Numbered from the stretch's first letter, positions 43,206-60,168 are shown. The stretch: DNA of 64,000 bases from a virus (IMGVR_UViG_3300017766_001583:2452-66451); one strand, 5' to 3'. Numbers and translations are program-made. The notes: a model not told the origin generated them from the sequence alone.

Positions 43206-43559
43206 ATGAAACCGATCCAGCTTGTCTTGCCCTGGCCTCCGAGCGTTAACAATTACTGGTTGCAGCGAGGCACGGCTAGGTTCATTGGTGCCAAGGGCAA
43301 AGCGTTCCGCAAGGCCGTCGCAGAAGAGTGCGCGGCCCAGGGGATCGTTGCTTTGGAGGGCAGGCTATCGATGCATGTGACCATGTGGCCACCGGATCGA
43401 CGCCGTCGGGATATCGATAACCCGATGAAGGCTTTGCTAGATGCCTGCGAACATGCCGGGTGCTACGAGGACGATGGGCAGATCGATGAGTTGCACATCG
43501 TCCGCCAAGAAGTGTATCGAGGCGGACGGTGCGTGATCATGATCTTGCCTATTCGGTAA
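43206..43559 (+). CDS. rusA: RusA Holliday junction resolvase
   Basis: LPWPPSVNNYW...PPDRRRRDIDN..KALLD...DDGQID. Confidence 0.9.
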   Translation: MKPIQLVLPWPPSVNNYWLQRGTARFIGAKGKAFRKAVAEECAAQGIVALEGRLSMHVTMWPPDRRRRDIDNPMKALLDACEHAGCYEDDGQIDELHIVRQEVYRGGRCVIMILPIR

Positions 43560-46500
43560 GAGCTTCTTGGCGCCTCACGTTTTTAAACGTTTCTACCCGC
43601 AGCTCTTTGATTGGTGCCAACAACTCATTGCGTAGTCTTTGCATTTCTACGATTTCTTTCCTGCGCGCTTGCGGAGTCGTGGTTTTGTCCTTCGATTCGC
43701 CCAACCTTCTGATCTCTGAATTGATTTCTTTAAGCTCTTCTTCGGTTTCGCTAATGTATTCGTACATGCCATCAATGTCGCCGTGCTTCTCGATGTATTT
43801 GTCGGCGGCTTTGTAGTCTTCTCGCTCGATAAGTTTTTTCAGAGTTTCGTGTTTTTCCATGACGATTTCTTTGAAGTCATAGAACAGGTCTTCGTTACCG
43901 CGAGGCACTTCCTCTCGCTTGAACGAACCGGTGATGGGCATCTCGCGAGGAGAAGGGGCCGGTCGAGTAGACGCTTCGATGCTGTTGCTAACCCACTGAG
44001 CCATAGCGCCAGCCGTTCCGAACAATCCGCGAACAATGTGATCCGCCTCCATCGGGTTCAGAGCGCGCTTACTTGTGCCTGGGATGGCCGTCATGGCACT
44101 GAGCTTCTTGCCAAGCTCTGAGGTGCTGGCCACGTATTGTTGCGCTGCCTCTACTCCTTCAACAGACTGAGGAGTGATCTGGCGACCAGTAAAGAAGCTG
44201 TGGTTGATCCCTACCTCCAAAAGCGTTTTGACTCCAGCAGGAATCGGCTCAGGCCCAAGCAATGCATCGCGAGCAAACTCTGCCAACGCTCTACGAAGAC
44301 GCCGCGCATCGTTCTCATTCTTGGTCCCATCTCTGGTGATCTTGTTGTAGATCAGCTCAGGGATGGCCTTGAAGATAAGAGCGGCACTGGTGTTGATCGG
44401 CATCACGATCTTGGTGCCAGGGATCATGATGTTGCGCAGCTTAGTTTGATCGTCCAGCTCATCGTACTCAGGATCGCCGCCAGCCAACATGCAATAAAGA
44501 ATCGTCAAAGTAGACAGCGTAGTCGCGGCAACGGCCAACCGAGCGATTGCTTTCTTGCGGCTCATGCCTTTAAGGCCGCCGCCCTGAAGGCTATTGAGAA
44601 GCACATCAGTCGAGTTCATCCAGGCGCCAATAAATGGCACTGTCTTCACCGCGGCTTGGGCAAACCCAGCGGAGCCATGATGCATGAAGTTAATGACATT
44701 TGCTGCTTGATACAGCGCCTGGGTTTGATCGCCGGTTTCAGCCATGACGCGCTTGTAGACGCCAACGCGCTGAGCCATATCGGAAGAGTCGCCAATGTGA
44801 TCCAACGTTTTGATTACCGCTGAATACACGTTGCGATTCATGATCCCCAGGCGCCGCTTGATCTCGGCCTCCGGGGTACGAGCTGGGCTATGGAATCCAC
44901 CAATACCAGCGGCTTTCAAGATGTCAATCACCGGATCAACGTTGACGCCAGCTTTCTTCATCCCAGGCTGAATAAGGCTAGTCAGGAAGCCTTTCCAAAC
45001 GCCACCGATCAGAGCGATAGGATTGCGAACGCCAGTCACCAGGGCGGCAGTCGGAGCGTCCTTGAACACCTGCTTCACTTGGAACACGCCAGACAGCGTC
45101 ACCCCTCGCCGAGTGAAGTTGGCGACCGCGGCCATCGGCGCCCACATTCTGAGGTTGATGTTCTCCATCCCGTAGATCGAGGCAACGACAACCGGATCTT
45201 GAATCTGAACAACAACCTTCTTGCCATTCACCATCCAGTTGAACTTGCCCTCTTCTGGATTGACTGACGGATAGACGCGGATCTTTCCTTCTGCGTTACG
45301 AACAGCGTACTCAAGCACGATCCTGTTCGATGCAAACTGCCGGATCCCGTTCATCGTCATACGCATAACGTTGCGCGTCATGTTGTCGATGATGTTCTGG
45401 ATCTCGCGGTTGGTTTCAAACGTCACCAAGTCGCCGGCTTCCAAAGCCATGTTGATGCGGACATCGCCTTGAGGTGTGGCCGTCACCAAGTCTGGGCTAA
45501 TCCGCTTGCCGTTGACCTTCACCTTAACCACAGAGGTCGGCTGGATCTTGAAGTCCTGTTGACCAGCAGTAGCGATGATATCCACTACATTGCGGGGACG
45601 GCCGCTCTTGAACAGTTTCTCCCGGCCAATGTTAACCAGCGACCGAGTCGTTGACTGAACAGCTTGCCCAGCAGAGTGAATGTCCTCGTCGTCATTCATG
45701 ATCCGATACCAAGGCACATAGTCCTTGATAGCAGACAGAGTTTCATACCGACCTTGAGATATTAGGCCGACCTGACGCCAGACTCTCAGCAGGTTTTGAT
45801 TGACCGCCGTCCAGTTATCCATAAGCGTGCGCAGCTCAGGATGCTTTTCATCCAGCGCAGCAAACTCATACATCTCCTCTTCGGACATGTTGACTGAGGA
45901 GGCGGCCCTGTTGATTGCTTCCAGATCGACCTTCAGATCATCGACTGCTTTCTTGGCCTCGGCAATATCTTCTGGAGGCGCCATCATCGCTTCCATTGCC
46001 TCAAGATTTTGCTCGGCTCTCTCTAGCGCATCAGTCCGCTCGCGCAGCTCATCCATGATGCTGATCGAACGCTTGGCCTCCAAATAACCCTGAACAATGT
46101 CAGTACCGAGCTGATTCCCAAGGCGCTTCTTGATTGCCGCTTCAGCTTCGTAAACGCCACGCATCCCAAGGTCGCGCTTGACTGCAACAAAGTTACCAAG
46201 CGCTGCGTTGTACTCAAGGCCGCCGCTGAAAATCACTTCAACACCAATGTTGCCGCTACGGATCGCGTTGTCGAGTGCAACAGACGACGTAACAATGTCG
46301 GCACTTGTGCGCAACTGTCCTTGGTAACGGGCAAAGTCCCGAGACTCTAGACCAGCGCCGTACCAAGAAGTCAGGTTACGTGCATTCAGGAGGGCATCGG
46401 TGACATTCCGTTCGGCAGCGGCAGCGGTTTGAATCGGACTTGTGACGGCGTCGGTTACAAAGTCTTTGCCGTTCGTATATGCATTGGTCAGTAAGGTCAG

Positions 46501-49500
46501 GACCGGAGAGTTGTCCAGCATCGGCGTATGCGGCCGGCTGTACCGCTGCATCAGGTCTTGCTCGTCCTGGGTGTTCATCGACATGCTGCTGGCGCGATCT
46601 TGCTCGCTCACATCTCGCGCCTCAACAGCGGCCGCAACGTTTTCGCTTGATTGAATATCAACCAGATTATCTGGACGCCACTTGCCCGCCCGTCGCTGAC
46701 CGCCATCAAAGTAACGAATCTCTACAGGGATGTATTCAACCCCCTCGGCCAAAGCCGCCATGATTCGATGGTTGCCTTCGCTAATCCATGGCACGCCATC
46801 AAACCCAACCTCAATGTATGGAACGTATTCGCCAGACTCTTCAATCGGGAACCGGCCTGTTTCACTGATGATCTTGCGAATAGCAGCAAGGTCTTTTTCG
46901 CGGACGTTCTGTTGTTCGCCGCGCTCTCCCTTTACATCGGTAAACCATCTTGTCGGCACGTACACCGGCCCGCTAAAGTACCCAGTAATCGACCCCATGT
47001 GCGGGACGCCAAACTGATTTCTGGGTTTCTGCATGGCGTACTTAATCTTGCCATCCAGCCACCCTTCGTTTGGAATGTCTTCTTGAAACTTAGCCGTTGG
47101 CTGAATGCTAGGCGCCCCCGTATCCGTCGACATGAAGTATTCTGTGTCGTCTTCATCAGGCGTCAGCACAGGCGGCTGAGCGGTAACGCGATCCATGTAC
47201 TGCGCAAACGTTTCGTCTGGCAAGTACTTGCGAGCTTTCAGTTGCTGATAGAAACGGCGAAGCTGATTGCCGAGCCTCTTGAAGAACTTCTCAACAGCAG
47301 TAACAGGCACCTTGTTGGATACTGCCCAACGTGCTGTTTGGTCGGCGTACCATTCTTCAAACTTACGCCAGTATGGCGGCAGCTCTTCGCCCTTTTGAGT
47401 CGGCGCTGCTTTAACTCGTCGCTGCCCTATGGCGCGACCACGCATAGAGTTAATTACTTCTTGTGCGGTCTTGGTTTTGTGAGTATCAAGCCACTTTTGA
47501 TGCGCGTCTTTTAGAGCCTTCTTGTCTGCTTCGCTGGCTCTTTCATAAACAGTTTTTTGATGAACGTGCCCAAGTTCATGAGCAAGAATCTCAAGCATGA
47601 ATGTTGGGCTAGTAGACTTGGTGAACAAGATGTAATGACTACCATCTGGCATCAGCCTTGTTGAGCCAAGATCATTTCGGTTTAATGTTCCAGACCCGAC
47701 CCTTCGGTGCGGACCGGTGTAATCGTTTTTATGAAGCCGAGCGTCTTCGATAGTCGCGATATAGATTGGAACGTCAAGCTTTAGCAGCTTCTTCCACTCG
47801 CGAACGATGCCTTCAATCTCAGGGGATACGCTCTCTGAAACAGCAACGCCATCCACAAACTTAATGAATGGGTTAGCCTTGTGTTTTTCCGCGGCGTCTT
47901 GCTCGGCCTTCTTTTTGGCCTCAATCATCTCCTGCTTGATGCTTGGGCTAACGCCGGTTCCGGTGTATTTCTCAATATCCTTTATGGAGCGTTGCCTGCC
48001 AAACGTAGCAACATAAACAGGGTCGCCGGTTTTATCGTCATAGGCGCGGATTAAAGCGTTGTCGCCTTTTCTCCAAACGATTTCTCCGCCAGTATCCCTG
48101 GCGTGACCCGCCGCGTTCTTTTTGTATGCCGCCTCAAGCTCTTTCTCAAACTCTGTTTCTTCTTTGGCTTCCGGCTCCGCCGCCTTCGGCTGCTCGGCAG
48201 GAATTGCCTGCAAGTATTTGCCAAACTGGCTACGTTGACTTCCAATGCCGCCGCTGGTGACGTTGATGCTGGCATCTTTGGAGATGACGCCATCTTCTTG
48301 CAGTCTTGCAACCGCTGCTCGCATGACCCGTTGGTACTGTTTGCCACCAACGATCAAGACATCTTTAATGCCATCTGGCCAGTCGATACTGTCCATGTCC
48401 CTTTGCAAAGTCAGAAGAAACTCTTCCGCTTTTTCTGGGGTCATAACCTGATCGTATGGCTCGATCTCTTTAGTTGGTTCAATGAACCCGTGCTTTGCCG
48501 ACAGGATGACAATGTTCGGTTCGGCGCCGCTCTTCTGGTTGCTTTTAAGCGTTTGGAAAAATACGCCCTTGTAAAGCTCCATGGCAGGAGCCTTCGCATC
48601 GCCTTTGGTATCGCAGCATGGCATCAATACCAATCGGTTCTTAGCAGGCAAGTCTGGATCAACAGGCTTGCCATTCACCACCTTATCGCCGGCCGCCTCT
48701 AGGGCTTCTGCCTGCTTTTTCTGATCATACGCAATCAAGTCTCTTCGACGCGACAACTCTGCCGGTGTCAAGACTTTGCCAGGAGTCTTTGCCGCGGCTT
48801 CCATTTCTTTGCGAGCCTGCCGAATGTTTGCAGGCTCAACTTCTTTGGGTTTTGCCGCTGGCTTTTCAGCTTTTGTTGCCCGCGGTTTTTTGGCAGGCTT
48901 TTCCAATTTTGCAAACGGTTCGGAAGGCAAGCCTAATTTGCTAATTGGGTTGTTATAAAACTCTGCGGCTGCCTTGTCATAAGCCTTTTCCTCGGCCAAG
49001 AATTCTTCTTTGCTGATCTTGTTGTCGCGATAATCAGCCATGGCTTGGACAAGACGCTCGCCTGCTTTGCGATAAATCCCTAATGCCGCCTGATACTCGG
49101 CGGTCCGGGCGTCCTCGCCAGTCTTAATCTCTGGCTCAGAAACATCTTCTGCTGGCTTTTCGGCTCTTGCTTCTCGCAGCTTCTTGACGCGCTCTTCCTT
49201 GGTTTCTGTAGGCTCAGTAGGCTCGTTAAGCTTGCGAATCGTTTCGCTAAACTTTACCGATTCCTTGTTATATTCCTCTTGTGCGGCTGCAAGTTCTTCT
49301 TTGCTAATCTCTTTGTTGCGATAAGCGGACTCAGCCTTTCCAAGCCGCTCGGTTGCTCTGCGAAGCGGCTCATATGCCGCTTGATACCCTGGGGACGGCG
49401 CGTTCTCGCCAGTAAATAGGTCGCCAGTAGGAGCGGCCTGCTCTTCAGATGGGGGCGCCGTCAGCCCAAACAGATCGACCTCTCGATCCGCGATTACCTT

Positions 49501-52500
49501 GCGCTCCTTCTCTTCTTTCTCTGCCGCTTCCTTATCTTCCCTGGCCTGACGCTCAGCCTCGGACTCGGAGGTCAGCTCAAACGGCGTTGCACCAATGGCT
49601 TCTCTGATCTCGGCGATTGCCTCGGAGTTGCTGTGCCAGTTGTCCCACTTAGCCTTGAGTTGCCTAAGCTCGGCCTCCCGGCGCTTCACCGCATCGAGAT
49701 CATTGACGTTGATGCCCTCTGCCTTGGCAAGCTCTGGGCGCTTGGCCACTCCGCTAATAGCAGACAGCCGGTTCTGTACTTCGCGCTGCTTCTTGGCGGC
49801 ATAGTCCGCCATGGCCGCGGCTTCTTCCAGGGCAGCAGTGTCATCACCAAAGATGTCTCGCGTGGTACCGCGCAAGCCACCGCTAGACATAACCCTCACG
49901 GCCTGCATGAGGTTGGTGGCCATGTTGATGGACTTGCCATCAAGCACGGCCTTCATGCCTACGCCTTGGAGCTTCGCATCGTTGGGGGCGTTGAGGGCGA
50001 TGTAGAACGCATCGTTGTCGGTGATTTGATCGGCTCTAAGCGACTCGATGAGTTCATCGCTGCCTTGATTTCCGATTGTGAAACCCCGCTTGCCCTTATC
50101 CCTTGCCAGAAATCCTTTTGACTCGGCGGTTTCCCGGTCCATGCCGCTTTCTTTGAAGTAGTTGACATAGTCCTTTACCTGTCCTTGATCGTCGCGAACG
50201 TTAAGTTCCGCGTCCTTGATGGCCGCGTCTTTTGCTGTGAACCCCTGGCTTTCGTAATAGACTTGCGCCGGAATTGTTTCTTCGCCGCTACGCTTTGCCA
50301 GATCAAACCGGTGCCGGCCAGAGATCACCTCAAGCGATCCGTCTAGTCTTTGCCACACGGCAATAGGAGCAAGTCCTTCTCTAGAGAACTTGCCACCCAG
50401 GGGTTTAACAACCCCCCTTTTGTCCGCCCCGTACTTAAACTGCGGCACATCTTCCGACAGTCTCAGCATCTTGATCGGCACATCTACGCTTGGCAGATCG
50501 GCATCTTGATGTTGCGGCGCTGCCGGCTCAAATGGTTTGACCGGCTTGACCGGCGCTACCGTTGGCGTGTCGGGAAGTCGAGCGGCGGCAGTGGTCGGGG
50601 CGACCGATCCTTTGAATGACGGGCCTTTGCCGGCCGGAGTGAAGGGCAGCTCGCCGGTAGCAGCGGCACCAGTAACAGGTGTTACTGGTGGAGCTTCGGC
50701 GGCAGGAGCGGTGCGAGTAACAGGTGTTACTGGCAGCTCTTCAATCTCATCGCCCGTTGGCATTCCTGGCACAACAGGTACAGTCGTTGGGGCTGCGGGC
50801 GTGGCTGGCGCTCCCCCCATCGTTGGCTCGACACGCTCACCCGGAGTGGGCGGCAGGGGGCCGGCTCCGATTGTAGGTTCGACGCGGCCAGGGCGTTCTG
50901 GGGCGACAAAATCTGCACTGATAGTCGGCTCAGTCCGGCCGGCACGTACTGTTTGCGTACCATCGACCGCGGACTGCGCTCGCAATCCCGCCATGGTCGG
51001 CTCAACTCTTTCTGCGTCTTTCCCAATGGCGCGAGCAACCGCCATCTTGGAGCTTACTGCCGGCAGAACCTTCTCAGAAAAGGCACGCTCTGACTTGCTT
51101 GCGCCATAGATTGCCGCATTAGACGCACCGGACTGGATGACCGTCTGCCTCAGTGTTTCGGCGGCTTGCTCCATGTAGTCTTTAAGTCCGGCGTTCTGAT
51201 TGAGGCCGAGACCAGGAAGTTTGTCTACAAGGAATTGCGACAGAGTGGTTGCTTGTTCAGAAGGGATCTCTTTAAGGAAAGCCGCCGTAAGGTAACCAGA
51301 CAGGTCTTTGGTTGGGACTCTATCAATCACCCCGCGAATAGCCTTGAGCTGATCGCCCAGGCCATAACGCTCAAACAGAATCTCCGACACAGCCATCAGG
51401 CCAGCTCTAGATCCCGCCTCGTTTGGCTTCAGTCCGGCACTGCGACCTTGCCCGTAGTTTTGCGAGAACACTTCAATGCCAGCCTGCGCCAACACTGGGA
51501 GAGCCGTTCCGGTCATCGCCCCAAGAACCATCATGGGCGCTTGGCCGCCGAGACTTGCAATGGCTTGCTGTGCAGACCGCTCCGCTATGCTATCGCCTTT
51601 GGGAATCGCCTCGCCCTTGGCAGTCTCAAGCTTGCGGTAATACGATAGATTCTTTTGCAGCTCATTGTCGCCGGCTACGTCTGCATAGATTTGCGCCAGA
51701 CCAAGACCAGTTTGCCTAGCTCTTGTGCCAATCTCTGCGCCAACGCGAGCGCCAAATCCAGCGCCTTCCATTTTTTGCTTGACTTGCTGTCCCGCAAGAG
51801 CCGCCTGCTCGGCAGCTACATCTCGCACCGCGGATGGCAAAACTTGAGGAGTAACGCCTCGACGCAGTGACTGCGCAGCCCATGCTTTCGCAGACTGCGG
51901 ATCCATCCCGCCTTTGACCTCAAGCTTTCTGGCTTGGGCCTCCAGCCTGGGATCAAATACTTGCTGAGCTTCAGGCGTCAGCTTGTCCATCGCCTGATAC
52001 CGACCCTGAATGTCCCTGGCTGCTCGGCCATACGCATCGTTGCGCTGTACCAGTCTGGCCAGCACTTTGTCGCGAGACTCTTTCGGAACGGCGTTGAGTT
52101 CTGTCTCTACAGCCTGGATAAACTTTGGATCGACAACGTAACGCTCGGCACTAGGCAACGGCTCTTGCTTGCCCTGTCCAGCGACATAGCCGGCCATGAC
52201 TGACTCGGGCTTTTTGATTGGTTGCCCACGCCCGCCAATAGCACTCCACTTCTCTGGAGTCATCTTCGCTTGAATCGTATTAGCCGGCTTTTGCGAATCC
52301 GCGACAGGCTGAGGAATCGTATTAGCCGGCTTTTGCGAATCTGTGGCTGGCTGCGCTGCGGCCGGCACATCAAACTGGTCAAACGGATTTGGCGTAGCCT
52401 TCTGTGGCTCAGCCTTCCTTGCGCTCTGTCCAAGCCCCATGTTCACCCCGGCGCTAATACTTTCGGGTGTGAACGTAGAACCAAAAGCTCTCTGCCCCTT

Positions 52501-52902
52501 CTCTTGAACGCCAATAGCAGTGATGAGCTTAGACATCACCGCTGGGTCTTGCATGTTCAGCGGAGCATTGGGATCAACGCCAAGCGCCCTCGATACATTG
52601 GCAATGTATGCGGCAGTCGGGTTGTTGTCCGACGGCGGCGCCCAGGTAGAGATGATCTTGGATACGGTATTGATACCGCGCTTGTTGTATGCCAACAGGT
52701 TTTGAACGTTGGCCGCTACCCCTTCTTCCGGTGACGCAAACGAACGGAACTGCGAGCTTCCAACTTCTCGCAGGTTTCCTACGTTGTATGGGTTTGGGCC
52801 TGTTGGCCTTGGCGCTTTTGGCGCGTCGAATTGATCAAACGGATTGGCAGTCGGAACTGGCGCAGGCTTCGGGTCGAATTGATCAAACGGATTCGCGGCC
52901 AT
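43549..52902 (-). CDS. 3117-aa polyvalent internal virion (DNA ejection) protein
   Basis: Lysozyme-like domain (GNL...WAPPSDNNPTAAY), ParB-like VISGRHR and SEGNHR, DUF6884-like ILSAKHG, HELGH zincin, LPD38-like C-terminus. Confidence 0.85.
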   Translation of the reverse strand: MAANPFDQFDPKPAPVPTANPFDQFDAPKAPRPTGPNPYNVGNLREVGSSQFRSFASPEEGVAANVQNLLAYNKRGINTVSKIISTWAPPSDNNPTAAYIANVSRALGVDPNAPLNMQDPAVMSKLITAIGVQEKGQRAFGSTFTPESISAGVNMGLGQSARKAEPQKATPNPFDQFDVPAAAQPATDSQKPANTIPQPVADSQKPANTIQAKMTPEKWSAIGGRGQPIKKPESVMAGYVAGQGKQEPLPSAERYVVDPKFIQAVETELNAVPKESRDKVLARLVQRNDAYGRAARDIQGRYQAMDKLTPEAQQVFDPRLEAQARKLEVKGGMDPQSAKAWAAQSLRRGVTPQVLPSAVRDVAAEQAALAGQQVKQKMEGAGFGARVGAEIGTRARQTGLGLAQIYADVAGDNELQKNLSYYRKLETAKGEAIPKGDSIAERSAQQAIASLGGQAPMMVLGAMTGTALPVLAQAGIEVFSQNYGQGRSAGLKPNEAGSRAGLMAVSEILFERYGLGDQLKAIRGVIDRVPTKDLSGYLTAAFLKEIPSEQATTLSQFLVDKLPGLGLNQNAGLKDYMEQAAETLRQTVIQSGASNAAIYGASKSERAFSEKVLPAVSSKMAVARAIGKDAERVEPTMAGLRAQSAVDGTQTVRAGRTEPTISADFVAPERPGRVEPTIGAGPLPPTPGERVEPTMGGAPATPAAPTTVPVVPGMPTGDEIEELPVTPVTRTAPAAEAPPVTPVTGAAATGELPFTPAGKGPSFKGSVAPTTAAARLPDTPTVAPVKPVKPFEPAAPQHQDADLPSVDVPIKMLRLSEDVPQFKYGADKRGVVKPLGGKFSREGLAPIAVWQRLDGSLEVISGRHRFDLAKRSGEETIPAQVYYESQGFTAKDAAIKDAELNVRDDQGQVKDYVNYFKESGMDRETAESKGFLARDKGKRGFTIGNQGSDELIESLRADQITDNDAFYIALNAPNDAKLQGVGMKAVLDGKSINMATNLMQAVRVMSSGGLRGTTRDIFGDDTAALEEAAAMADYAAKKQREVQNRLSAISGVAKRPELAKAEGINVNDLDAVKRREAELRQLKAKWDNWHSNSEAIAEIREAIGATPFELTSESEAERQAREDKEAAEKEEKERKVIADREVDLFGLTAPPSEEQAAPTGDLFTGENAPSPGYQAAYEPLRRATERLGKAESAYRNKEISKEELAAAQEEYNKESVKFSETIRKLNEPTEPTETKEERVKKLREARAEKPAEDVSEPEIKTGEDARTAEYQAALGIYRKAGERLVQAMADYRDNKISKEEFLAEEKAYDKAAAEFYNNPISKLGLPSEPFAKLEKPAKKPRATKAEKPAAKPKEVEPANIRQARKEMEAAAKTPGKVLTPAELSRRRDLIAYDQKKQAEALEAAGDKVVNGKPVDPDLPAKNRLVLMPCCDTKGDAKAPAMELYKGVFFQTLKSNQKSGAEPNIVILSAKHGFIEPTKEIEPYDQVMTPEKAEEFLLTLQRDMDSIDWPDGIKDVLIVGGKQYQRVMRAAVARLQEDGVISKDASINVTSGGIGSQRSQFGKYLQAIPAEQPKAAEPEAKEETEFEKELEAAYKKNAAGHARDTGGEIVWRKGDNALIRAYDDKTGDPVYVATFGRQRSIKDIEKYTGTGVSPSIKQEMIEAKKKAEQDAAEKHKANPFIKFVDGVAVSESVSPEIEGIVREWKKLLKLDVPIYIATIEDARLHKNDYTGPHRRVGSGTLNRNDLGSTRLMPDGSHYILFTKSTSPTFMLEILAHELGHVHQKTVYERASEADKKALKDAHQKWLDTHKTKTAQEVINSMRGRAIGQRRVKAAPTQKGEELPPYWRKFEEWYADQTARWAVSNKVPVTAVEKFFKRLGNQLRRFYQQLKARKYLPDETFAQYMDRVTAQPPVLTPDEDDTEYFMSTDTGAPSIQPTAKFQEDIPNEGWLDGKIKYAMQKPRNQFGVPHMGSITGYFSGPVYVPTRWFTDVKGERGEQQNVREKDLAAIRKIISETGRFPIEESGEYVPYIEVGFDGVPWISEGNHRIMAALAEGVEYIPVEIRYFDGGQRRAGKWRPDNLVDIQSSENVAAAVEARDVSEQDRASSMSMNTQDEQDLMQRYSRPHTPMLDNSPVLTLLTNAYTNGKDFVTDAVTSPIQTAAAAERNVTDALLNARNLTSWYGAGLESRDFARYQGQLRTSADIVTSSVALDNAIRSGNIGVEVIFSGGLEYNAALGNFVAVKRDLGMRGVYEAEAAIKKRLGNQLGTDIVQGYLEAKRSISIMDELRERTDALERAEQNLEAMEAMMAPPEDIAEAKKAVDDLKVDLEAINRAASSVNMSEEEMYEFAALDEKHPELRTLMDNWTAVNQNLLRVWRQVGLISQGRYETLSAIKDYVPWYRIMNDDEDIHSAGQAVQSTTRSLVNIGREKLFKSGRPRNVVDIIATAGQQDFKIQPTSVVKVKVNGKRISPDLVTATPQGDVRINMALEAGDLVTFETNREIQNIIDNMTRNVMRMTMNGIRQFASNRIVLEYAVRNAEGKIRVYPSVNPEEGKFNWMVNGKKVVVQIQDPVVVASIYGMENINLRMWAPMAAVANFTRRGVTLSGVFQVKQVFKDAPTAALVTGVRNPIALIGGVWKGFLTSLIQPGMKKAGVNVDPVIDILKAAGIGGFHSPARTPEAEIKRRLGIMNRNVYSAVIKTLDHIGDSSDMAQRVGVYKRVMAETGDQTQALYQAANVINFMHHGSAGFAQAAVKTVPFIGAWMNSTDVLLNSLQGGGLKGMSRKKAIARLAVAATTLSTLTILYCMLAGGDPEYDELDDQTKLRNIMIPGTKIVMPINTSAALIFKAIPELIYNKITRDGTKNENDARRLRRALAEFARDALLGPEPIPAGVKTLLEVGINHSFFTGRQITPQSVEGVEAAQQYVASTSELGKKLSAMTAIPGTSKRALNPMEADHIVRGLFGTAGAMAQWVSNSIEASTRPAPSPREMPITGSFKREEVPRGNEDLFYDFKEIVMEKHETLKKLIEREDYKAADKYIEKHGDIDGMYEYISETEEELKEINSEIRRLGESKDKTTTPQARRKEIVEMQRLRNELLAPIKELRVETFKNVRRQEALTE
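50669..50731. repeat. Two AGTAACA-GG-TGTTACT palindromes within the giant gene
   Basis: At 50671-50686 and 50716-50731; encode PVTPVT. Confidence 0.8.
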
Positions 52903-52908
52903 ATTTCT

Positions 52909-55440
52909 TTACTGTGCAGGTTTAGGAAGGAACCCGGCCGATGCTCCGGCGCCAAACTTTTCATCAAATCTCGCAGCAAATTGAGGATTTGCTTTTAGAT
53001 GGTCAATGTGCGCTTGCGTTGGCTTTGGATAGTTTCCGGGAGCCGGCATACTGCGCGCCGGAGCCGTTGGCTGGGCGGGGGCTGCCGCCGCGCTGGACTT
53101 AGGCGTCCTTCTTGTGGCTTCATCTTGAATCCACTTATCTCTAAACGCCTCCGCAGCCGCACGGCCATCGGCGGCACGCTTTACAGGGTCTTTCTCAGCG
53201 GGATCGCCTTGCGCAAGTTCACGATACCTGCGCAGATCCGGGTCAATATACTTCTTCTTAGACCACGTATCTGCGGCATCCTCGACAATTTTGCGCTGCT
53301 GCTCGGCGCGCTGAACTTCTTGACCTGCGGCGGCCGTTGCGGCCGTGCTTTGTTGCCCTGCTGCCGCAGTACCGGCCGCAGCTCTTGCGACATCTCTCGT
53401 CGCCTCCACTCTGCCAGAAGCGTATCCATACTCTTTGAAGAAGACTCGATACCCCTCGTCGCGAATGACCTCATCTGATCTTTGGTCGCCGGAAGATCTT
53501 TTCATCTGCACATAGTTATCCGCAAACTTTGCGCCAAGCTGGCTATCTTTTGCAATGTTCTGACGGGTTGCACGATCAAGAGCCTTCTCTTGCAGCTCGG
53601 CCGCAGTCTTGATGTCACCAAGCTTCTCGGCCCTGCGAGCTTCAGCGTAATCAGCCTGGGCTTTCAGGCCAAGAAGGCCGGACTCTTTCTGCTTCTTGAG
53701 GTCTTCCGCGTAACCAGCCAATGCAGGCGCCGCGCCTTCAGCAATGTTCTTCAGCGCAAACGGAGATGTGCCGCCAAGAATTCCCAGGCCGGCCTGCAAG
53801 AACCGCATACCTCTTTGCTGCTCTTTCTCCTCGGGCGTAATAGCCGCGGCACGCTGAGCCTCCAGCCATGCTTTTGATTCTGGCGTTGCATCACCAGTAA
53901 TACCATATGCCGCCTTGGCCGCTCTAATCTGTTCCATTTGATCAGAGAGAGTTGGCTCTCTCACCAAATCACCAGAACTGAACGCCACAATCCCGCCGGA
54001 GGCCATCTCTTCTGGCAGATTCGACTGAAGGCCAGGAAGACCTGATGCCATCGCCTCTTCACGAATCGTTTGCTTGGGCTGCTGTTGCTGCATTGCAGCA
54101 AATTGCTGAGCCATCTTCTGCTTTTGCAGCGCAGCAGGAATGCCAATGAGATCGCTGATTGTTTCGTTCTTGACGCCTTGCTGCACTTGGCCAAGCGTGA
54201 CTGACTCAGGCTCAAACAGTACTTTGCGGTTAAGCGATGGGATTCCGCCCGTGGCCATGCTTTGGACTTTGCCGCCGCCGGCCATACTCTTGATGACGCC
54301 GCCTTCGGCTCTTCCGCCCCCCATCATTTGGGATATGCCATACGCCCCCATGCCTAAGCCGGCAAGCTGAGACATCCCGGACGGAGCCGCCTGATATGAC
54401 GTTGCGGTTTGGCCTGGGACTGCGTACCCACGCAGCAGCGCGTTATAAGCATTGTATTGCTGAAGCGGATACTGCCGAGCATTAGCGAAGTTCTGAATTG
54501 CCTGATTGACAATATTCTGCTGCTGCTGCTGTTGCTGGCCGCCCGCCGTAGATTGCAACCCAATGATGTCTTTTTGAGCCGCTAGTTGTTGCGTGCCAAG
54601 ATTTCCAACGTTTGCACCTTGACGGCCAAGCAGATCGTATGCACCGAGTACGTTCTGCATCCCCTGTTGCGCACCTTGCATCCCCTGAAGACCAAGATTC
54701 GACCCAAACTGCTGAGCTTGCTGAGCGTTTTGGAATGCGTTCTGAAGGCCCGTCGCCTGAATGCCTTGCTTTGTCCGCATCAGATCCGCATTGGCTTGCG
54801 CTTGAGCAATTCCTTGCGCACCACCACCAAACGCTCCGCGCTGAGCAAAGCCAGCTTTTGCCGCTTGGTTGGCAATATCAGCCTGCCGTTGCGCCTGTTG
54901 CTGCTGGACGTTGACGACGTTTTGCATGTACGGGGACATGAACGCCCGCATCGACCCAGGGTCTGATGCCATCCCCATGTATTGGTTGCCGGCATTGGCC
55001 TGCTGAGATGCAATCCCGGCAGCTTGAGGAGCTACGCTTAACGCACCTTGCCCAGCCATCTGAGCCATTTGGGTGCCGGTGCCGAACTGTCCGGGCACTT
55101 GAAGGTTTGCTATGTTGCCAAACGCCTGCTCCTGCATAGGCGAAAATCCAGCAACATAATCGCTAGGATCTTGGCTATAAGGAACGAACGGCTTGACGCC
55201 AGTAATGTTTAGCTTGCCGTCTTGGCCGGGAGATGTATTGAACAGCTCCTGCATTGAGCCGCCGAGAGTTGTCTCGACTTGAGGGCGCAGCCAGTCAGGA
55301 ATGTTTGATTGAGTAACTGTCGAGCTAGTAGGACCGCCGCCACCGCCCGAGCCGTACACAATCCTCCCGCCGCTCTTATGAGTTGCAGATTCACCAATAG
55401 GCTCACCGAGAGCATAGAGTTGATGACGGGAGTAGTTCAT
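52909..55440 (-). CDS. Internal virion/ejection protein
   Basis: 843 aa; leader then GSGGGGG, Gln/Ala/Gly-rich helices, MA.GG motifs. Confidence 0.7.
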   Translation of the reverse strand: MNYSRHQLYALGEPIGESATHKSGGRIVYGSGGGGGPTSSTVTQSNIPDWLRPQVETTLGGSMQELFNTSPGQDGKLNITGVKPFVPYSQDPSDYVAGFSPMQEQAFGNIANLQVPGQFGTGTQMAQMAGQGALSVAPQAAGIASQQANAGNQYMGMASDPGSMRAFMSPYMQNVVNVQQQQAQRQADIANQAAKAGFAQRGAFGGGAQGIAQAQANADLMRTKQGIQATGLQNAFQNAQQAQQFGSNLGLQGMQGAQQGMQNVLGAYDLLGRQGANVGNLGTQQLAAQKDIIGLQSTAGGQQQQQQQNIVNQAIQNFANARQYPLQQYNAYNALLRGYAVPGQTATSYQAAPSGMSQLAGLGMGAYGISQMMGGGRAEGGVIKSMAGGGKVQSMATGGIPSLNRKVLFEPESVTLGQVQQGVKNETISDLIGIPAALQKQKMAQQFAAMQQQQPKQTIREEAMASGLPGLQSNLPEEMASGGIVAFSSGDLVREPTLSDQMEQIRAAKAAYGITGDATPESKAWLEAQRAAAITPEEKEQQRGMRFLQAGLGILGGTSPFALKNIAEGAAPALAGYAEDLKKQKESGLLGLKAQADYAEARRAEKLGDIKTAAELQEKALDRATRQNIAKDSQLGAKFADNYVQMKRSSGDQRSDEVIRDEGYRVFFKEYGYASGRVEATRDVARAAAGTAAAGQQSTAATAAAGQEVQRAEQQRKIVEDAADTWSKKKYIDPDLRRYRELAQGDPAEKDPVKRAADGRAAAEAFRDKWIQDEATRRTPKSSAAAAPAQPTAPARSMPAPGNYPKPTQAHIDHLKANPQFAARFDEKFGAGASAGFLPKPAQ

Positions 55441-55868
55441 ATAAGCACCTCAACCAAGGTAAGTCTTGGCTCAAAATCGTAACGCTTCCACAGCCGCATG
55501 ATTGAATCTCTACCGTATCCTTGGATCTTGGTAGCACCGCGCTGCTTTAGCAGAAGCTTGAATTGATTAAACGTGTCTGTATTGGAAATTAACTTTCCGC
55601 CAATCGCCGTTACAAACGCGACACGATGAATCGGGTAGTTAACAAACGATACCGCACAGGCACCGCATACAGACCCATCTTCTTCTATCGCCACCACCAA
55701 CAACCATGCCCCGTTCGTAAGGAACATTTGGAGGTGGTGGATGTTGTAGTTGTGATGCCAGTCAGGAAACTCTGGACTGCTATTTAATGCTTCTTCTAAG
55801 AATGGCTCAACAACTGGCCACACTTGTGACACATTAGATGTCTCGACATACTGGATGGCAATAGCCAT
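55437..55868 (-). CDS. GNAT-fold acyltransferase-like virion assembly protein (P22 gp14 / T7 gp13 position)
   Basis: VWPVVEPFLEEAL...LLVVA...VAFVTAIGG...ATKIQGYGR. Confidence 0.65.
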   Translation of the reverse strand: MAIAIQYVETSNVSQVWPVVEPFLEEALNSSPEFPDWHHNYNIHHLQMFLTNGAWLLVVAIEEDGSVCGACAVSFVNYPIHRVAFVTAIGGKLISNTDTFNQFKLLLKQRGATKIQGYGRDSIMRLWKRYDFEPRLTLVEVLI

Positions 55869-56341
55869 TAGCGGTTAAGCCCAGCAAGTCCGTAGTCATT
55901 GAAAGCGGGGCCGTTGTAAAGACTGGCAATCCCTTGCGAACCGCTTTGAGCAAATGGATCGACAAACTGCCCAAACGGCGATTGCATGTTAGTGCCGTAA
56001 TCACTTACTGCCGGAGTAGAGCTTCGGGCGTAGTCGGTGTAAGTCGGTCGGTAAATGTTCGTATTAACAGACGGCTGCTGTTGCGCTTGGTAGTCGGAGA
56101 GAATCGAGGGTTGAGATGCCCCCGGCAGTCCGGCAAGCCCTTGGCTATACGGGCTTTGGTAGTCGTTACCTCCGTAGCCGTTGTCTGAACTAATCCCGTG
56201 CATACCTAAAGCAGCATCAACTGATCCGATACTTCCGACATCCCCCATAGCTGGGCCACCGTCGCCACCGCCACCACCGCCACCACCAGCATAGTAAGTG
56301 CGGCGACCAGCTTTATACCCATTGAATTTGCTGTAAATCAT
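55868..56341 (-). CDS. Small ejection-type protein with leader and poly-Gly
   Basis: MIYSKFNGYKAGRRTYYAGGGGGGGG. Confidence 0.6.
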   Translation of the reverse strand: MIYSKFNGYKAGRRTYYAGGGGGGGGDGGPAMGDVGSIGSVDAALGMHGISSDNGYGGNDYQSPYSQGLAGLPGASQPSILSDYQAQQQPSVNTNIYRPTYTDYARSSTPAVSDYGTNMQSPFGQFVDPFAQSGSQGIASLYNGPAFNDYGLAGLNR

Positions 56342-56353
56342 AAGTTTGTCCGC

Positions 56354-57397
56354 TTATGCTGGCATCATTTTTTTCGGGGTGATTCTGCGGCCCTGCTTTT
56401 TGTTCCCAGTGCGGGCAGAACGAACTCGACTCATCATGGCATAGAGCTGCTTGGCCCCAGCGTCTGTCGAGCCATTGCCAAGGTGGGACACTACGTCAGC
56501 AGGGATGACGAACTCGCCATCAGCCAGTCGAGCGGGTTGCTTGTTGGCAATGCTTGCTGGGATGTGGTCGGACATCCCGTCGCCCGGACCCTTCAGAAGT
56601 CGACCACCATCTGAGTAGCCGCCAAGACTCGCAATACCGCCTTTAGCAAACTGCGGCCTGTAAACAGAGGGATCGTAAACAAACTTGGATAGCGGCCCAG
56701 TATACGGAGCCTGACCCGGAACCTTGCCTTTTTGGCCCATAAGCGCCATCAGCCCAAGCGCACCACCGCCACCATAGAGAAGCTTTTTCTCTGGCGACAG
56801 GTTCTTCCAGATATCCATCAACCCGCGAGGAGGCTGCCCCGCTGGGTTCAAAGCCCCAAAACTTGATCGAAATCCCGGCTGACTTTGCCCAAGAAATGAC
56901 AGTCCACTTGGCTGAGCTGCTACGGGAGCCGCTACCTGCGCCGCCATCGGATTCATGGCTTGTTGGGCAGCATCGGAAGCGCCCACCATTTGTTCCGCCG
57001 TCCCGGAGAACAATCCTTCAAGCCCCTGAGGAGCTGCTGACATCGGATTTAGAGTTGCTCCCGCTGCCTCGGCAAGCCCACTGGCCAACCCTTCCGTTGC
57101 TGCCGCACCCGCCCCCGCACCCGTCGCCGCTGTACCTGCTGCCACTCCCGGAGAAGTTAAGGCCGTAATCGGGGCCGCATTCGCAGCCGAGCCAAGAAAA
57201 CTTGGTAGGGCGCCGGTCATCGCAAAATTACCGACCCCGCCGGTTAGACCACCAAGCAATGCGCCTTGTAGAGGGTTGCCGCCTCGCAGCGCAGAGGTTC
57301 CGCCTCCAATCGCAGCCCCAAGGAGAATAGGCTCCATGCCCGTATGGTAAGTACGGCGTCCGGCAACGTAACCATTGAATTTATTGGAGATAAGCAT
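56354..57397 (-). CDS. Internal virion/ejection protein
   Basis: MLISNKFNGYVAGRRTYHTG leader, hydrophobic Gly-rich segment, GPGDGMSD.IPA...LADGEFVIPADVV domain. Confidence 0.7.
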   Translation of the reverse strand: MLISNKFNGYVAGRRTYHTGMEPILLGAAIGGGTSALRGGNPLQGALLGGLTGGVGNFAMTGALPSFLGSAANAAPITALTSPGVAAGTAATGAGAGAAATEGLASGLAEAAGATLNPMSAAPQGLEGLFSGTAEQMVGASDAAQQAMNPMAAQVAAPVAAQPSGLSFLGQSQPGFRSSFGALNPAGQPPRGLMDIWKNLSPEKKLLYGGGGALGLMALMGQKGKVPGQAPYTGPLSKFVYDPSVYRPQFAKGGIASLGGYSDGGRLLKGPGDGMSDHIPASIANKQPARLADGEFVIPADVVSHLGNGSTDAGAKQLYAMMSRVRSARTGNKKQGRRITPKKMMPA

Positions 57398-57421: not shown

Positions 57422-58069
57422 TCACCGCAACGGAGCGGACACAAAGGAAAGCGTAGTAATTACAGAAGGAACTGCGGGTCTTGTAGGAGAGGTGCCGGCA
57501 GCATACCCAGTAAGACTTAAAGAGATATCTGCTGTACGCCAAACTAATTCCAAGTAGTCGTCTTCTTTCATATCGGCAAAGATATTCAGCGCGGCCAAGA
57601 TATGAAACGGGTCGCCCGGATTCTTTCGTGCTGGCAAGCCAAATCGACTGTTGGAGTTGGGGATGTCCACGCCGTTCTGTCTTACCCAGATATCCATATC
57701 ATGCGGGGCGTTGCTACTGTTGTTTAGCTGCACGCTAAACTGAAGGTTGTAGATACCTTCTTGAGAAACAGTCATTCGTGAGCCGCCAATCAGCGATACC
57801 CCGTTGCTCAAGGATGTTGAATTGAGGGTAATCACATATGCTTGCGTCGTTAACGCAGCATTCTGTACTGTTGTGTCATAAAACGCGCCATGAGGAAAGC
57901 TCAGCCTATAGCCGCCTCTCGGCCCACTAAGCTGCTGGAGGTTGTTGCTAAGCTGGTTGAAGTACAGTCGCAGTACGTTTGAGTACTGATCGTGATACCC
58001 AGCGTCCCAGTCCTTTGGGGATATGGGGAGGCTTGGTCCGGGCGGAAACCGCAGATAGTTATTGCTCAT
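57422..58069 (-). CDS. Tail protein with C1q/BclA-like C-terminal domain
   Basis: LRLYFNQL coil then GAFYDTT...GIYNLQFSVQL...DIWVRQNG. Confidence 0.65.
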   Translation of the reverse strand: MSNNYLRFPPGPSLPISPKDWDAGYHDQYSNVLRLYFNQLSNNLQQLSGPRGGYRLSFPHGAFYDTTVQNAALTTQAYVITLNSTSLSNGVSLIGGSRMTVSQEGIYNLQFSVQLNNSSNAPHDMDIWVRQNGVDIPNSNSRFGLPARKNPGDPFHILAALNIFADMKEDDYLELVWRTADISLSLTGYAAGTSPTRPAVPSVITTLSFVSAPLR

Positions 58070-60168
58070 CGCCTGCCGTCTGTGCGAACGTCAATCCGTT
58101 GAGTGCCAGCCTGCCACGCGGTGTTTACTTGATTTGACTCAAGACGCATGGCCATCTGTCGGCCACGCAGTCTCATGTAAACCTGACCGGTAAACTTTTC
58201 CGTATCCAACGCAGTCTCTGGCGCTACCAACGTCACCGTTTCGGTCTTCGCGCTACCGATGCCGGAGCCAGAGTTGCGCAGTGCCGACAAAGATAGATCG
58301 ACTCTAGGAGCCAGTCCGCCCGGAGTGTTTTCAGAGTTGGCAAACGTGACATCAGGCACCACGCGCCATACAAACCCAAAGCTATTGCCGTCGCCAATAT
58401 CAAACTCAGAAGAAGAGATATAAGCGTGGATCGGTAAGTCTGTGCCATCTGTATTGTCATTCAACCCCGACTCTTGAGCGATCAGCCTGCCAGTCTGGGT
58501 AGTTGAATCATACGTTGCGCTAATTGGCAGCGCCCGTAATCCAGAGTCAATCCACGCGCTACGCTCTAAAGTGCCGTAATACCAGACGTTCTCGGCGTAG
58601 TTATAGATGACGTATCTGTCTATCTCATTCGAATTTTTAGACGGGTAAAGCCACCAGACTTCATTAAACCCTTCATTAGACCCAGAATAAATAAGGCCTA
58701 TTTGATCGTGGTTCAGGTTGCTAAACACAAACCTTCTGAGATCGCAGTTCAGAGTTTGAACTCGACCGTTGTAGGCATAGAACTTGTCTACGCCCATCCA
58801 ATACACAACGCCTGACGCCAAGGTAACGCAGTTTCTGCCGACTATCGAAATGTTGTCAGCCAGAAGCTGAGATCCCCATACGACTGGCGGCCCAAAGTAT
58901 TGTAATGAATACAGGCTGGATTCGGTGAACAGCAGAATCTCTTGACGAGCAATCATCCAAGAAACGATGGACGATCCATGAGATAACCTCAAGCTTCCCG
59001 CTTGGTTAGTCGCATCCGGAGTCCATTGGTATTGGTTGTCTTGATCGCTCCATCGAACAAGCAAAGGATCAAGTGTCGCAGAGCCGTAGTCGTTGCAACC
59101 TAGTGCCAAAACAAACCTGTTGACATCCGACACGATAATGCCGTTTTGCGTTGTCGGTATATCAACAAGCAGTGAAACAGAAAACGTTCCACTTCCTGCG
59201 CCTGTGACGTTGACAAGGCTCCCGGCTACGTTAAGCAGATTTGCGGTCAGGCCGTTTACATTAAACAGGTAGTAAGTGGTCAGCGCAGAAATGCCGGTCG
59301 GCAATGTGCCGCCAGACGATACGGCAAACTGAATGGCCGTGCCTTCTGTAAGTACAGTGGATAGCGTAACAACCGTAGGTGATGTAGTGGTAAACGTTAC
59401 CGTCCCGCCGAGAGAGTTAAGCAAAACTCCCCGAGTTGATGTTCCGGCAGTAGCGTCCCAATAGTAAATGCCGCCTTTGGCTGGGCCGTAAATCAGGTCT
59501 TCGCCATAGTTTTGCTGCGACCACAGACGAAGGTCGGTAGTGGTCGAGCTGGGCGTGCCTGTGCCCCAAGGGCCAGAACCCCAAGCTCCAGACCCCCATC
59601 CTGCCAAAGGAACAACCGTTGCCGGCCCAACCGACAATTGATATGCAGCCACTACGGCTGATCCACCGTACGATCCCGCTACTAAAGCAGTAGGTGTCGT
59701 GATTGTGTATGTATTGACGGTGAGTACAGTGACCTGAAACTCAGCGTTCAGGGTGCTTGCATACGTTCCGGTGGCGCCGCTGAAGGTAAAAAAGTCCCCG
59801 GTGATACACCCGTGCGAAGTATCCGTTACCGTAACAGTCGTCGTTCCAGTAGCAGCAAAGGGATCGGTGCCTAGAGTAACGGTGCGACGAAGAGGCGTGA
59901 TGTCGAACATCGAGCCGCCGTCTTCGATATAGAACTTCAGATGGGTGCCGATGCCCATCAAGTTTTTGCCAGTTAGCGTTACCCAGTTCCAGAGCGAACG
60001 ACAAACGCCTTTGAAGACATTGAGCGAATACGGCGCCCAACCGCCAATTGTTTCTGGCGTGCTTTGCCGGAACCTAACTTTGTCGCACTCCCACCAACCG
60101 CCTTCGTTAGTGTATCGAGTGTTCTCTTTGTTAACCCCCGGCTTGAGAGCTATCTTCTGTAACGGCAT
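58066..60168 (-). CDS. Tail nozzle / head-stabilisation protein (P22 gp10-like beta-propeller)
   Basis: 700 aa; PLLVRWSDQDN, VVYWMG..KFYAYNG, NEVWWLYPS, RIDVRTDGRR. Confidence 0.75.
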   Translation of the reverse strand: MPLQKIALKPGVNKENTRYTNEGGWWECDKVRFRQSTPETIGGWAPYSLNVFKGVCRSLWNWVTLTGKNLMGIGTHLKFYIEDGGSMFDITPLRRTVTLGTDPFAATGTTTVTVTDTSHGCITGDFFTFSGATGTYASTLNAEFQVTVLTVNTYTITTPTALVAGSYGGSAVVAAYQLSVGPATVVPLAGWGSGAWGSGPWGTGTPSSTTTDLRLWSQQNYGEDLIYGPAKGGIYYWDATAGTSTRGVLLNSLGGTVTFTTTSPTVVTLSTVLTEGTAIQFAVSSGGTLPTGISALTTYYLFNVNGLTANLLNVAGSLVNVTGAGSGTFSVSLLVDIPTTQNGIIVSDVNRFVLALGCNDYGSATLDPLLVRWSDQDNQYQWTPDATNQAGSLRLSHGSSIVSWMIARQEILLFTESSLYSLQYFGPPVVWGSQLLADNISIVGRNCVTLASGVVYWMGVDKFYAYNGRVQTLNCDLRRFVFSNLNHDQIGLIYSGSNEGFNEVWWLYPSKNSNEIDRYVIYNYAENVWYYGTLERSAWIDSGLRALPISATYDSTTQTGRLIAQESGLNDNTDGTDLPIHAYISSSEFDIGDGNSFGFVWRVVPDVTFANSENTPGGLAPRVDLSLSALRNSGSGIGSAKTETVTLVAPETALDTEKFTGQVYMRLRGRQMAMRLESNQVNTAWQAGTQRIDVRTDGRR

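Follow-up and report, generated by a model that had tools for sequence, protein, structure and literature searches.

The ejection module encoded in a 64,000-nucleotide stretch of viral DNA (IMGVR_UViG_3300017766_001583:2452-66451; referred to in full as the window) contains otherwise unrelated proteins that begin with a common N-terminal leader peptide of ∼19 residues. The KFNGY..GRR.Y leader noticed in the initial annotation of the window proved to be a real, conserved and portable element of ejection proteins, and it was detected on 106 IMG/VR stretches. It is one of several leader types that are exchanged at the same position. The window represents 64 kb out of a 66,451-bp IMG/VR virus record with direct terminal repeats, and near-identical DNA was observed again in freshwater metagenomes from several studies (2017-2023). 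The source is an uncultured freshwater phage, and its gene layout is that of a short-tailed (podovirus-type) phage with internal ejection proteins. The four open reading frames (ORFs) under study were recovered on the minus strand with the boundaries originally assigned to them (Table 1).

A leader peptide shared by unrelated ejection proteins

A BLASTP comparison of the 347-amino-acid (aa) protein F1 and the 157-aa protein F4 aligned only residues 2 to 18 with residues 1 to 17, respectively, with 12/17 identities (E = 5e-6). No other significant similarity was detected outside the leader, and hence the proposal that two otherwise unrelated proteins share an N-terminal peptide was confirmed. 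A comparable junction had also been suggested for the 843-aa protein F2, residues 24 to 36 of which consist of G-G-R-I-V-Y followed by G-S-G-G-G-G-G; the G-R-x-x-Y ending is thus common to this leader and to those of F1 and F4. An F2 orthologue on a relative contig, L015 (L-numbers denote IMG/VR-type relative contigs or loci and G-numbers denote relative genomes), has a KFNGY leader, termed type A, in place of the type B leader of F2. Homology between these two proteins begins right after the Gly-run, at residue 37 of F2 and residue 27 of the orthologue, and the leader junctions of F2 and of the KFNGY proteins are therefore equivalent. Similarly, Met21 of F1 lines up with the start codon of leaderless orthologues. 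The in-frame ATG for this residue (window positions 57335-57337) is located exactly at the leader/body junction, and production of a leaderless isoform by internal initiation is conceivable; no clear Shine-Dalgarno sequence was seen before this ATG.

Distribution and conservation of the type A leader

Searches were performed with a back-translated DNA pattern for M-x-I-x-N-K-F-N-G-Y. All viral matches, on the 106 stretches mentioned above, could be read as an ORF from their own ATG. When the same pattern was applied to 596 Gb of bacterial and archaeal genomes (185,579 species genomes), three chance matches, which were without the remainder of the leader motif, and one short phage-like contig of a metagenome-assembled genome were obtained. 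No host protein in these genomes carried the exact pattern, and no copy was found in a long chromosomal contig suggestive of a prophage. These results indicated that sharing of the peptide is far beyond chance, the contribution of which is negligible.

Positions outside the search pattern were also conserved (D/G, 99%; R, 84%; Y, 75%; and also G/N), giving a consensus of M-x-I-x-N-K-F-N-G-Y-x-x-[DG]-[GN]-x-R-x-Y-x followed by GGGG or D-P. After removal of the leader, the carrier proteins fell into at least five unrelated groups, comprising F2-like, F1-like, a "middle" family, small Ala-rich proteins and single cases. The check that had been suggested, a motif search in relatives, thus found the leader retained on more than 100 contigs in which the genes that follow it differ greatly. 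Within eight complete genomes, it was confined to two or three proteins, all of which were encoded in the ejection module. A separate observation was a KFNGY leader at the head of a 358-aa protein (L179:10569-11645) with a Peptidase_S74 intramolecular-chaperone C terminus (E = 8.6e-10), a domain usually found in tail fibres or spikes and not in ejection proteins.

Two other identities for the peptide were rejected. A twin-arginine translocation (Tat) or Sec signal was discounted since the twin Arg is not invariant, R-R being present in a minority of leaders, and neither F2 nor F4 has a hydrophobic core in the residues that follow. Exact mimicry of a host protein was rejected for the exact pattern only, from the genome search described above. 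A literature search for the KFNGY motif found no paper describing it. A tblastn search of phage records with a 24-residue leader gave no match, which is uninformative as the query was short and low-complexity filtered.

Interchangeable leader types and rapid turnover

Alignment of 81 distinct N termini of the F2 family on the conserved I-P-E-Y-A-R-P-Y-V-E core detected leaderless forms, which start with M-[SAG]-GGGG exactly at the junction, and at least five other leader types besides type A at the same position. These included a related type (S-K-H-S-G-W-T-W...R-T-P-F), type B (M-N-Y-S-R-R-Q-L-E-A-L-G-E-P-L-G-E-S...G-G-R-I-Y), to which the F2 leader of the window belongs, M-[RK]-F-N-[DN]-R-[AS]-M-A-L forms and an aromatic M-N-F-L-K-Y-W-K-W-F-F-F form. 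All of the F2-family leaders end one to three residues past an aromatic residue, just before the Gly-run, and the same pattern of leader-bearing and leaderless forms was observed in relatives of F1.

Gene-order tables for ∼150 loci contained every combination of leader types on F1, the middle protein and F2. Rare types tended to occur twice per genome, with B+B on two different proteins in L013, L034 and L068 and C+C in L022; a strict rule of one leader type per genome was rejected, as mixed combinations were common. A tree built from 80 distinct F2 cores required the leader state to change at least 22 times, against a possible minimum of 6, and near-identical cores carried no leader, a type D leader or a type B leader (L025, L027, L042 and L018). 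Gain, loss and replacement of the leader therefore outpace change in the mature protein. The existence of leaderless orthologues that start at the junction and of near-identical cores with and without a leader indicated, by comparison, that the leader is dispensable for mature function.

A second portable N-terminal module of ∼55 residues (G-[DE]-[DT]-x-L-x-H-x-x-P-x-E...G-G-[SA]-x-T-I-N-P-x-T-G-L-x-E) was observed at the head of different ejection proteins. It replaces the short leaders, is sometimes followed by a Gly-run and was found in L018:6935-8098, in L045 (an F2 homologue) and in L059, L070, L075, L093, L165 and L173 (F1 homologues).

Selection on the leader at the peptide level

Of the 12 codons at which the F1 and F4 leaders of the window specify an identical residue, 5 show synonymous differences. 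Among 84 distinct DNA versions of the leader, all synonymous codons were used at invariant residues, including all six Arg codons. A variant contig from an independent freshwater lake run (X7) had five differences in the F1 leader, at residues 10, 11, 13, 18 and 20, and all five were third-position synonymous changes; this comparison utilized contigs and variant calls only, such that coverage gaps carry no meaning. As synonymous codons have diverged while the residues stay the same, selection acts on the leader at the peptide level, and a recent duplication or a purely DNA-level role is excluded.

A GNAT-fold protein in the ejection module

The initial annotation had also placed a GNAT-fold gene between the ejection proteins, and structure prediction upheld this assignment. 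An AlphaFold model of the 143-aa protein had a predicted local distance difference test (pLDDT) score of 87.5 and a predicted template modelling (pTM) score of 0.82. A Foldseek search with this model matched 242 PDB chains at E ≤ 1e-3, and all of those listed were GNAT acetyltransferases (E of about 5e-7; TM, 0.56 to 0.68), so that a GNAT fold is confidently predicted. Like members of the GNAT superfamily, such as RimI, SpeG and the aminoglycoside acetyltransferases, the protein matches in predicted fold; unlike them, it has neither a match to a Pfam model (none at E ≤ 10) nor a recognizable acetyl-CoA pyrophosphate loop. The family is large (1,112 clusters at 50% identity; E ≤ 1e-3), and only 1 of 30 members matched Acetyltransf_1, weakly and short of the cut-off (E = 0.0035). 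The canonical R/Q-x-x-G-x-G/A acetyl-CoA loop (beta4/alpha3) could not be recognized in the family alignment, and a conserved [IT]-G-G-K-L-I segment, in which G91 is invariant, occupies this site. A further observation on this family was that 22 separate stretches of a 3,229-aa protein (P0094) match positions 37 to 72 of the GNAT profile, which may represent a repeat protein composed of this segment or a compositional artefact.

GNAT proteins from other lineages were detected at the same location. L075 and four relatives encode a canonical Pfam Acetyltransf_1 protein with an intact R-x-x-G-x-G loop in the same slot between F1 and F2. P22 gp14 (DUF2824), the gene for which is immediately upstream of gene 7, is also confidently predicted to have a GNAT fold (pLDDT, 87.6), with SpeG-like matches at E = 4e-7 and a TM of about 0.7. 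Because no profile similarity was found (hhalign probability below 1% for the window GNAT profiles against DUF2824), the link between the window protein and gp14 is one of fold and position only. The GNAT fold is thus a recurrent feature of ejection modules in three sequence-unrelated lineages, namely this family, L075 and P22 gp14. In the P22 records (L193:370-1059 / L194, P22 genes 7 and 14), gp14 is annotated only as "virion stability factor" or DUF2824, and a full-text literature search for P22 gene 14 and DUF2824 found no paper on its function or fold.

The slot between F1 and F2 can also contain a 148- to 151-aa protein with a W-D-D-L-V-D-K-D motif, which appears helical from its sequence. 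It lies beside the GNAT gene in L108 (2860-3315) and L140 and replaces it in L047, L098, L099, L109 and L115; the L108 copy, the only one scanned, had no Pfam match.

The GNAT gene assorts independently of the leader

A hidden Markov model (HMM) of the GNAT family matched seven of the eight complete genomes, including both leaderless ones (G001 and G002), and GNAT genes were also present at loci such as L019 and L021 in which all ejection proteins are leaderless. The remaining complete genome, G008, gave no match to this HMM even at E ≤ 10 and has a type A leader on F1 and a type D leader before the Gly-run of F2. All four combinations were observed: GNAT and leader, GNAT only (G001 and G002), leader only (G008) and neither (G013, MinM2-like); MinM2-like genomes have neither the GNAT gene nor the Gly-run. 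As GNAT genes occur in leaderless genomes and are missing from a complete leader-bearing genome, the GNAT gene and the leader assort independently, and the GNAT-fold protein recurs in ejection modules as a component in its own right.

These results bear on the suggestion that removal of the leader, or excision of Met, exposes a Gly or Ala N terminus that is then N-acylated by the adjacent GNAT, yielding a modified membrane-penetration protein. In its favour are the GNAT-fold genes of three sequence-unrelated lineages in the same slot, the translational coupling of the GNAT gene to the downstream ejection gene, F2, and the almost universal presence of Gly-rich N termini in the F2 family. N-myristoylated penetration proteins of animal viruses, such as picornavirus VP4 and reovirus mu1N, similarly have a Gly N terminus on a protein that crosses or perforates a host membrane. 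Unlike in these viruses, the enzyme would be a small GNAT, a single 143-aa domain, rather than the two-domain N-myristoyltransferase, and it assorts independently of Gly N termini. The co-occurrence expected of an enzyme acting on the exposed terminus was not seen: G008 has leaders and a Gly-run without a GNAT, while in the L075 lineage a GNAT is present yet F2 starts with M-C-S-P-S-Q and has no Gly-run. Furthermore, the GNAT family of the window has no recognizable canonical loop, and no acyl-carrier or lipid-metabolism gene was found nearby. Acylation of an N terminus exposed in this manner is consequently improbable, and the proposal of a second virion post-translational modification system was not supported. 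The broader idea that ejection-module GNATs acylate ejection proteins, perhaps at the Gly-rich N terminus left by leader trimming or Met excision, is similarly doubtful; if true, it would provide a phage counterpart of the acylated penetration peptides of animal viruses, in which the leaders would time the availability of the N terminus.

Genetic context of the ejection module

The minus-strand operon has the order 700-aa protein, 215-aa protein, F1, F4, GNAT, F2 and 3,117-aa protein (Table 1). The F1 body begins with a Gly/Ala-rich, hydrophobic, "Gly-zipper-like" segment, continues through a low-complexity middle and ends in a conserved domain that also occurs in cyanophage MinM2/Pag-Yong1 and Caulobacter phage proteins. 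The F4 slot is occupied by a different protein in different relatives. The conserved core of F2 begins at the Gly-run and continues with P-T-S-S-T-V-T-Q-S-N-I-P-D-W-L-R-P-Q-V-E. The terminase, the portal and a capsid protein of the Phage_capsid_4 or Mu gpT-like type are encoded elsewhere in the window.

Table 1. Coordinates of the leaders, ejection-module proteins and adjacent genes in the window
Feature	Coordinates	Strand	Details
Type A leader of F1, residues 1-20	57338..57397	-	M-L-I-S-N-K-F-N-G-Y-V-A-G-R-R-T-Y-H-T-G
F1 body, 347-aa ejection protein (ORF 56354-57397)	56354..57337	-	221 related IMG/VR stretches
Type A leader of F4, residues 1-17	56291..56341	-	M-I-Y-S-K-F-N-G-Y-K-A-G-R-R-T-Y-Y, then A-G8
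F4 body, 157-aa ORF 55868-56341, Gly-rich, low complexity	55868..56290	-	Ejection-module protein
GNAT-fold protein, 143 aa	55437..55868	-	Predicted by AlphaFold (AF2) and Foldseek
Type B leader of F2, residues 1-29	55354..55440	-	M-N-Y-S-R-H-Q-L-Y-A-L-G-E-P-I-G-E-S...G-G-R-I-V-Y, then G-S-G5
F2 body, 843-aa ORF 52909-55440	52909..55353	-	phrog_4287 "DNA ejection protein"
3,117-aa polyvalent internal protein	43549..52902	-	LPD38, DUF6884, HELGH zincin
215-aa and 700-aa virion structural proteins	57422..60168	-	phrog_3287 (700-aa protein); directly upstream of ejection module

Pfam and PHROGs searches gave no match for the 347-, 157- and 143-aa proteins, and none was obtained when 50,697 phage records were searched with the region by blastn. 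Among cultured phages, tblastn detected only distant leaderless relatives, in MinM2/Pag-Yong1/Pra-JY27 and Caulobacter phages, and a relative of the GNAT protein in Methylophilales phage Venkman. Homologues of the 215-aa protein (57422-58069) in L003-L082 have a strongly conserved N terminus (...P-N-L-P-x-A-P-x-x-Y...N-V-L-R-L-Y-F-N-x-L...) and C-terminal parts of 97 to about 460 aa, as for an adaptor with swappable distal domains.

Comparison with known leader systems

The closest known system is the gene 14-gene 7 arrangement of phage P22, which the initial annotation had rightly chosen for comparison. The P22 record annotates removal by host OpdA of 20 residues from the N terminus of gp7; these read M-L-Y-A-F-T-L-G-R-K-L-R-G-E-E-P-S-Y-P-E and are followed by K-G-G-K-G-G. 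Mature gp7 starts with K-G-G-K-G, and a burst of about 60% is retained when the leader is deleted (PMC8402733). Like gp7, the 347-, 157- and 843-aa proteins of the window have N-terminal leaders, of 17 to 29 residues, that are aromatic and basic and have an aromatic residue near the end (Y-x-x in gp7), followed by a Gly-rich start. The dispensability of the gp7 leader has its counterpart in the leaderless orthologues of the window family, no phage protease is implicated in either case and a small gene for a GNAT-fold protein (predicted for gp14) is present in the same module. Unlike in P22, where only gp7 has a leader and its cleavage is annotated, one to three unrelated proteins per genome carry one of several interchangeable types, and cleavage is inferred only. 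The gp7 model PF25688 had no match to window proteins, compared to a value of 9e-129 for gp7 itself.

Two other phages provide partial parallels. In T4, a capsid targeting sequence is present on the internal proteins IPI-III and Alt, targets the scaffolding core and is cut at a defined motif by the phage's own prohead protease, gp21 (PMC3012670). The window resembles T4 in having the same short N-terminal peptide on unrelated capsid-internal, injected proteins. Unlike in T4, searches of the window detected no prohead protease, the leader ends revealed no such cleavage motif at the junction on inspection and close relatives often have no leader. In Staphylococcus phage 80alpha, a shared N-terminal motif on the non-homologous capsid and scaffold proteins is cut by the host protease Prp, and the peptide matters before cleavage while cleavage itself is not essential (PMC5744158). 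As in 80alpha, for which removal by a host enzyme has been shown, the same motif heads non-homologous structural proteins. The 80alpha motif copies the pro-sequence of host L27, whereas no exact KFNGY leader was found on host proteins of the 185,579 species genomes, and the window leaders are on ejection proteins and not on capsid and scaffold proteins.

Proposed function of the leader

Restriction of the leader to ejection proteins, together with its frequent swapping, loss and replacement, argues that it is not part of the mature working protein. The peptide is probably a small beta-hairpin, as its invariant N-G and D/G-G pairs are strong, classic beta-turn formers. A phage enzyme for its removal was sought in several ways. 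The head module of the window had no match to a prohead or head protease family, and the 306-aa neighbour of the capsid gene was scaffold-like at best. Comparison of the gene contents of six leader-A and two leaderless genomes detected no leader-A-specific gene except for a lysozyme gene, a lineage effect. The HELGH zincin of the 3,117-aa protein was rejected as a leader peptidase because it is missing from five complete leader-A genomes. As none of these approaches linked a phage peptidase to the leader, the reading that we favour, with about an even chance of being correct, is that the leader, by analogy with that of P22 gp7, is a pro-sequence that a general host peptidase would remove by cutting at the aromatic/Gly junction. 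The leader would act in the infected cell, either by keeping unfolded, membrane-active ejection proteins inert or chaperoned or by helping their loading. An OpdA/M3-like host peptidase would then cut at the point where the terminal aromatic residue meets the Gly-run, leaving a Gly-rich N terminus exposed. A preference of OpdA for Gly or Ala beside the cleaved bond has been described. Several points weigh against this proposal. The cleavage, the enzyme and the role before cleavage are inferred, and the presence of an OpdA-like enzyme in the host is an assumption. The window proteins are not homologous in sequence to P22 gp7, so that the parallel is one of architecture only. A genome can combine different leader types (A, A and B in the window), so that a single recognition system would have to accept several sequences. 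The comparison of leader-bearing and leaderless genomes involved only six and two complete genomes, respectively. Finally, the leader is more conserved than the proteins that it heads, which fits a specific docking partner at least as well as it does a host peptidase of broad specificity.

Such a partner is central to a possible but distinctly less probable explanation, in which the leader is retained as a loading or docking tag, a small beta-hairpin that binds a conserved core component (portal barrel, scaffold or the 700-aa protein). The tag would load ejection proteins into the procapsid or order their exit, with the Gly-run as a flexible tether, and would resemble the T4 capsid targeting sequence minus its cleavage. 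Very strong conservation of the leader across phages whose mature proteins have widely diverged, turn motifs suggestive of a folded element, confinement to ejection-module proteins and the failure to find a protease are all consistent with docking, as is the requirement for the 80alpha scaffold N terminus, but not its cleavage, in assembly (PMC5744158). A retained tag is difficult to reconcile with near-identical mature proteins that have the leader, no leader or an unrelated leader, with whole genomes lacking a leader on any ejection protein (G001 and G002), with the mixing of unrelated types in one genome and with the finding that the P22 gp7 leader is dispensable and is not a procapsid-binding determinant (PMC8402733). 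Similarity without any peptide function, due to recent duplication, gene conversion or a conserved DNA linker favouring exchange of modules by recombination, would account for the frequent exchange of leaders between genes and genomes and for the pairing of rare types in L013, L034, L068 and L022. This explanation is highly improbable, being largely refuted by the codon analysis, in which third positions have diverged with residues kept (including the 5/12 codons of the window leaders), and by retention of the motif on more than 100 contigs with very different downstream genes.

Implications for short-tailed phages

Little is understood of the way in which short-tailed phages load their ejection proteins, hold them and let them go, and the leader that OpdA trims from P22 gp7 has until now been an isolated curiosity. 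The present leaders are of a known kind, pro- or targeting sequences on internal phage proteins; they stand out in being modular and broadly distributed and in existing as several interchangeable types. Leaders before a Gly-rich start are widespread on the ejection proteins of a large group of uncultured freshwater phages, so that comparative work and simple expression experiments can now address what the leader is for. Practical interest in the leader is modest; a portable tag specific for ejected proteins could serve to load cargo into phage heads. The occurrence of a small GNAT-fold protein in three sequence-unrelated lineages, including P22 gp14, makes the role of this protein testable in a model phage.

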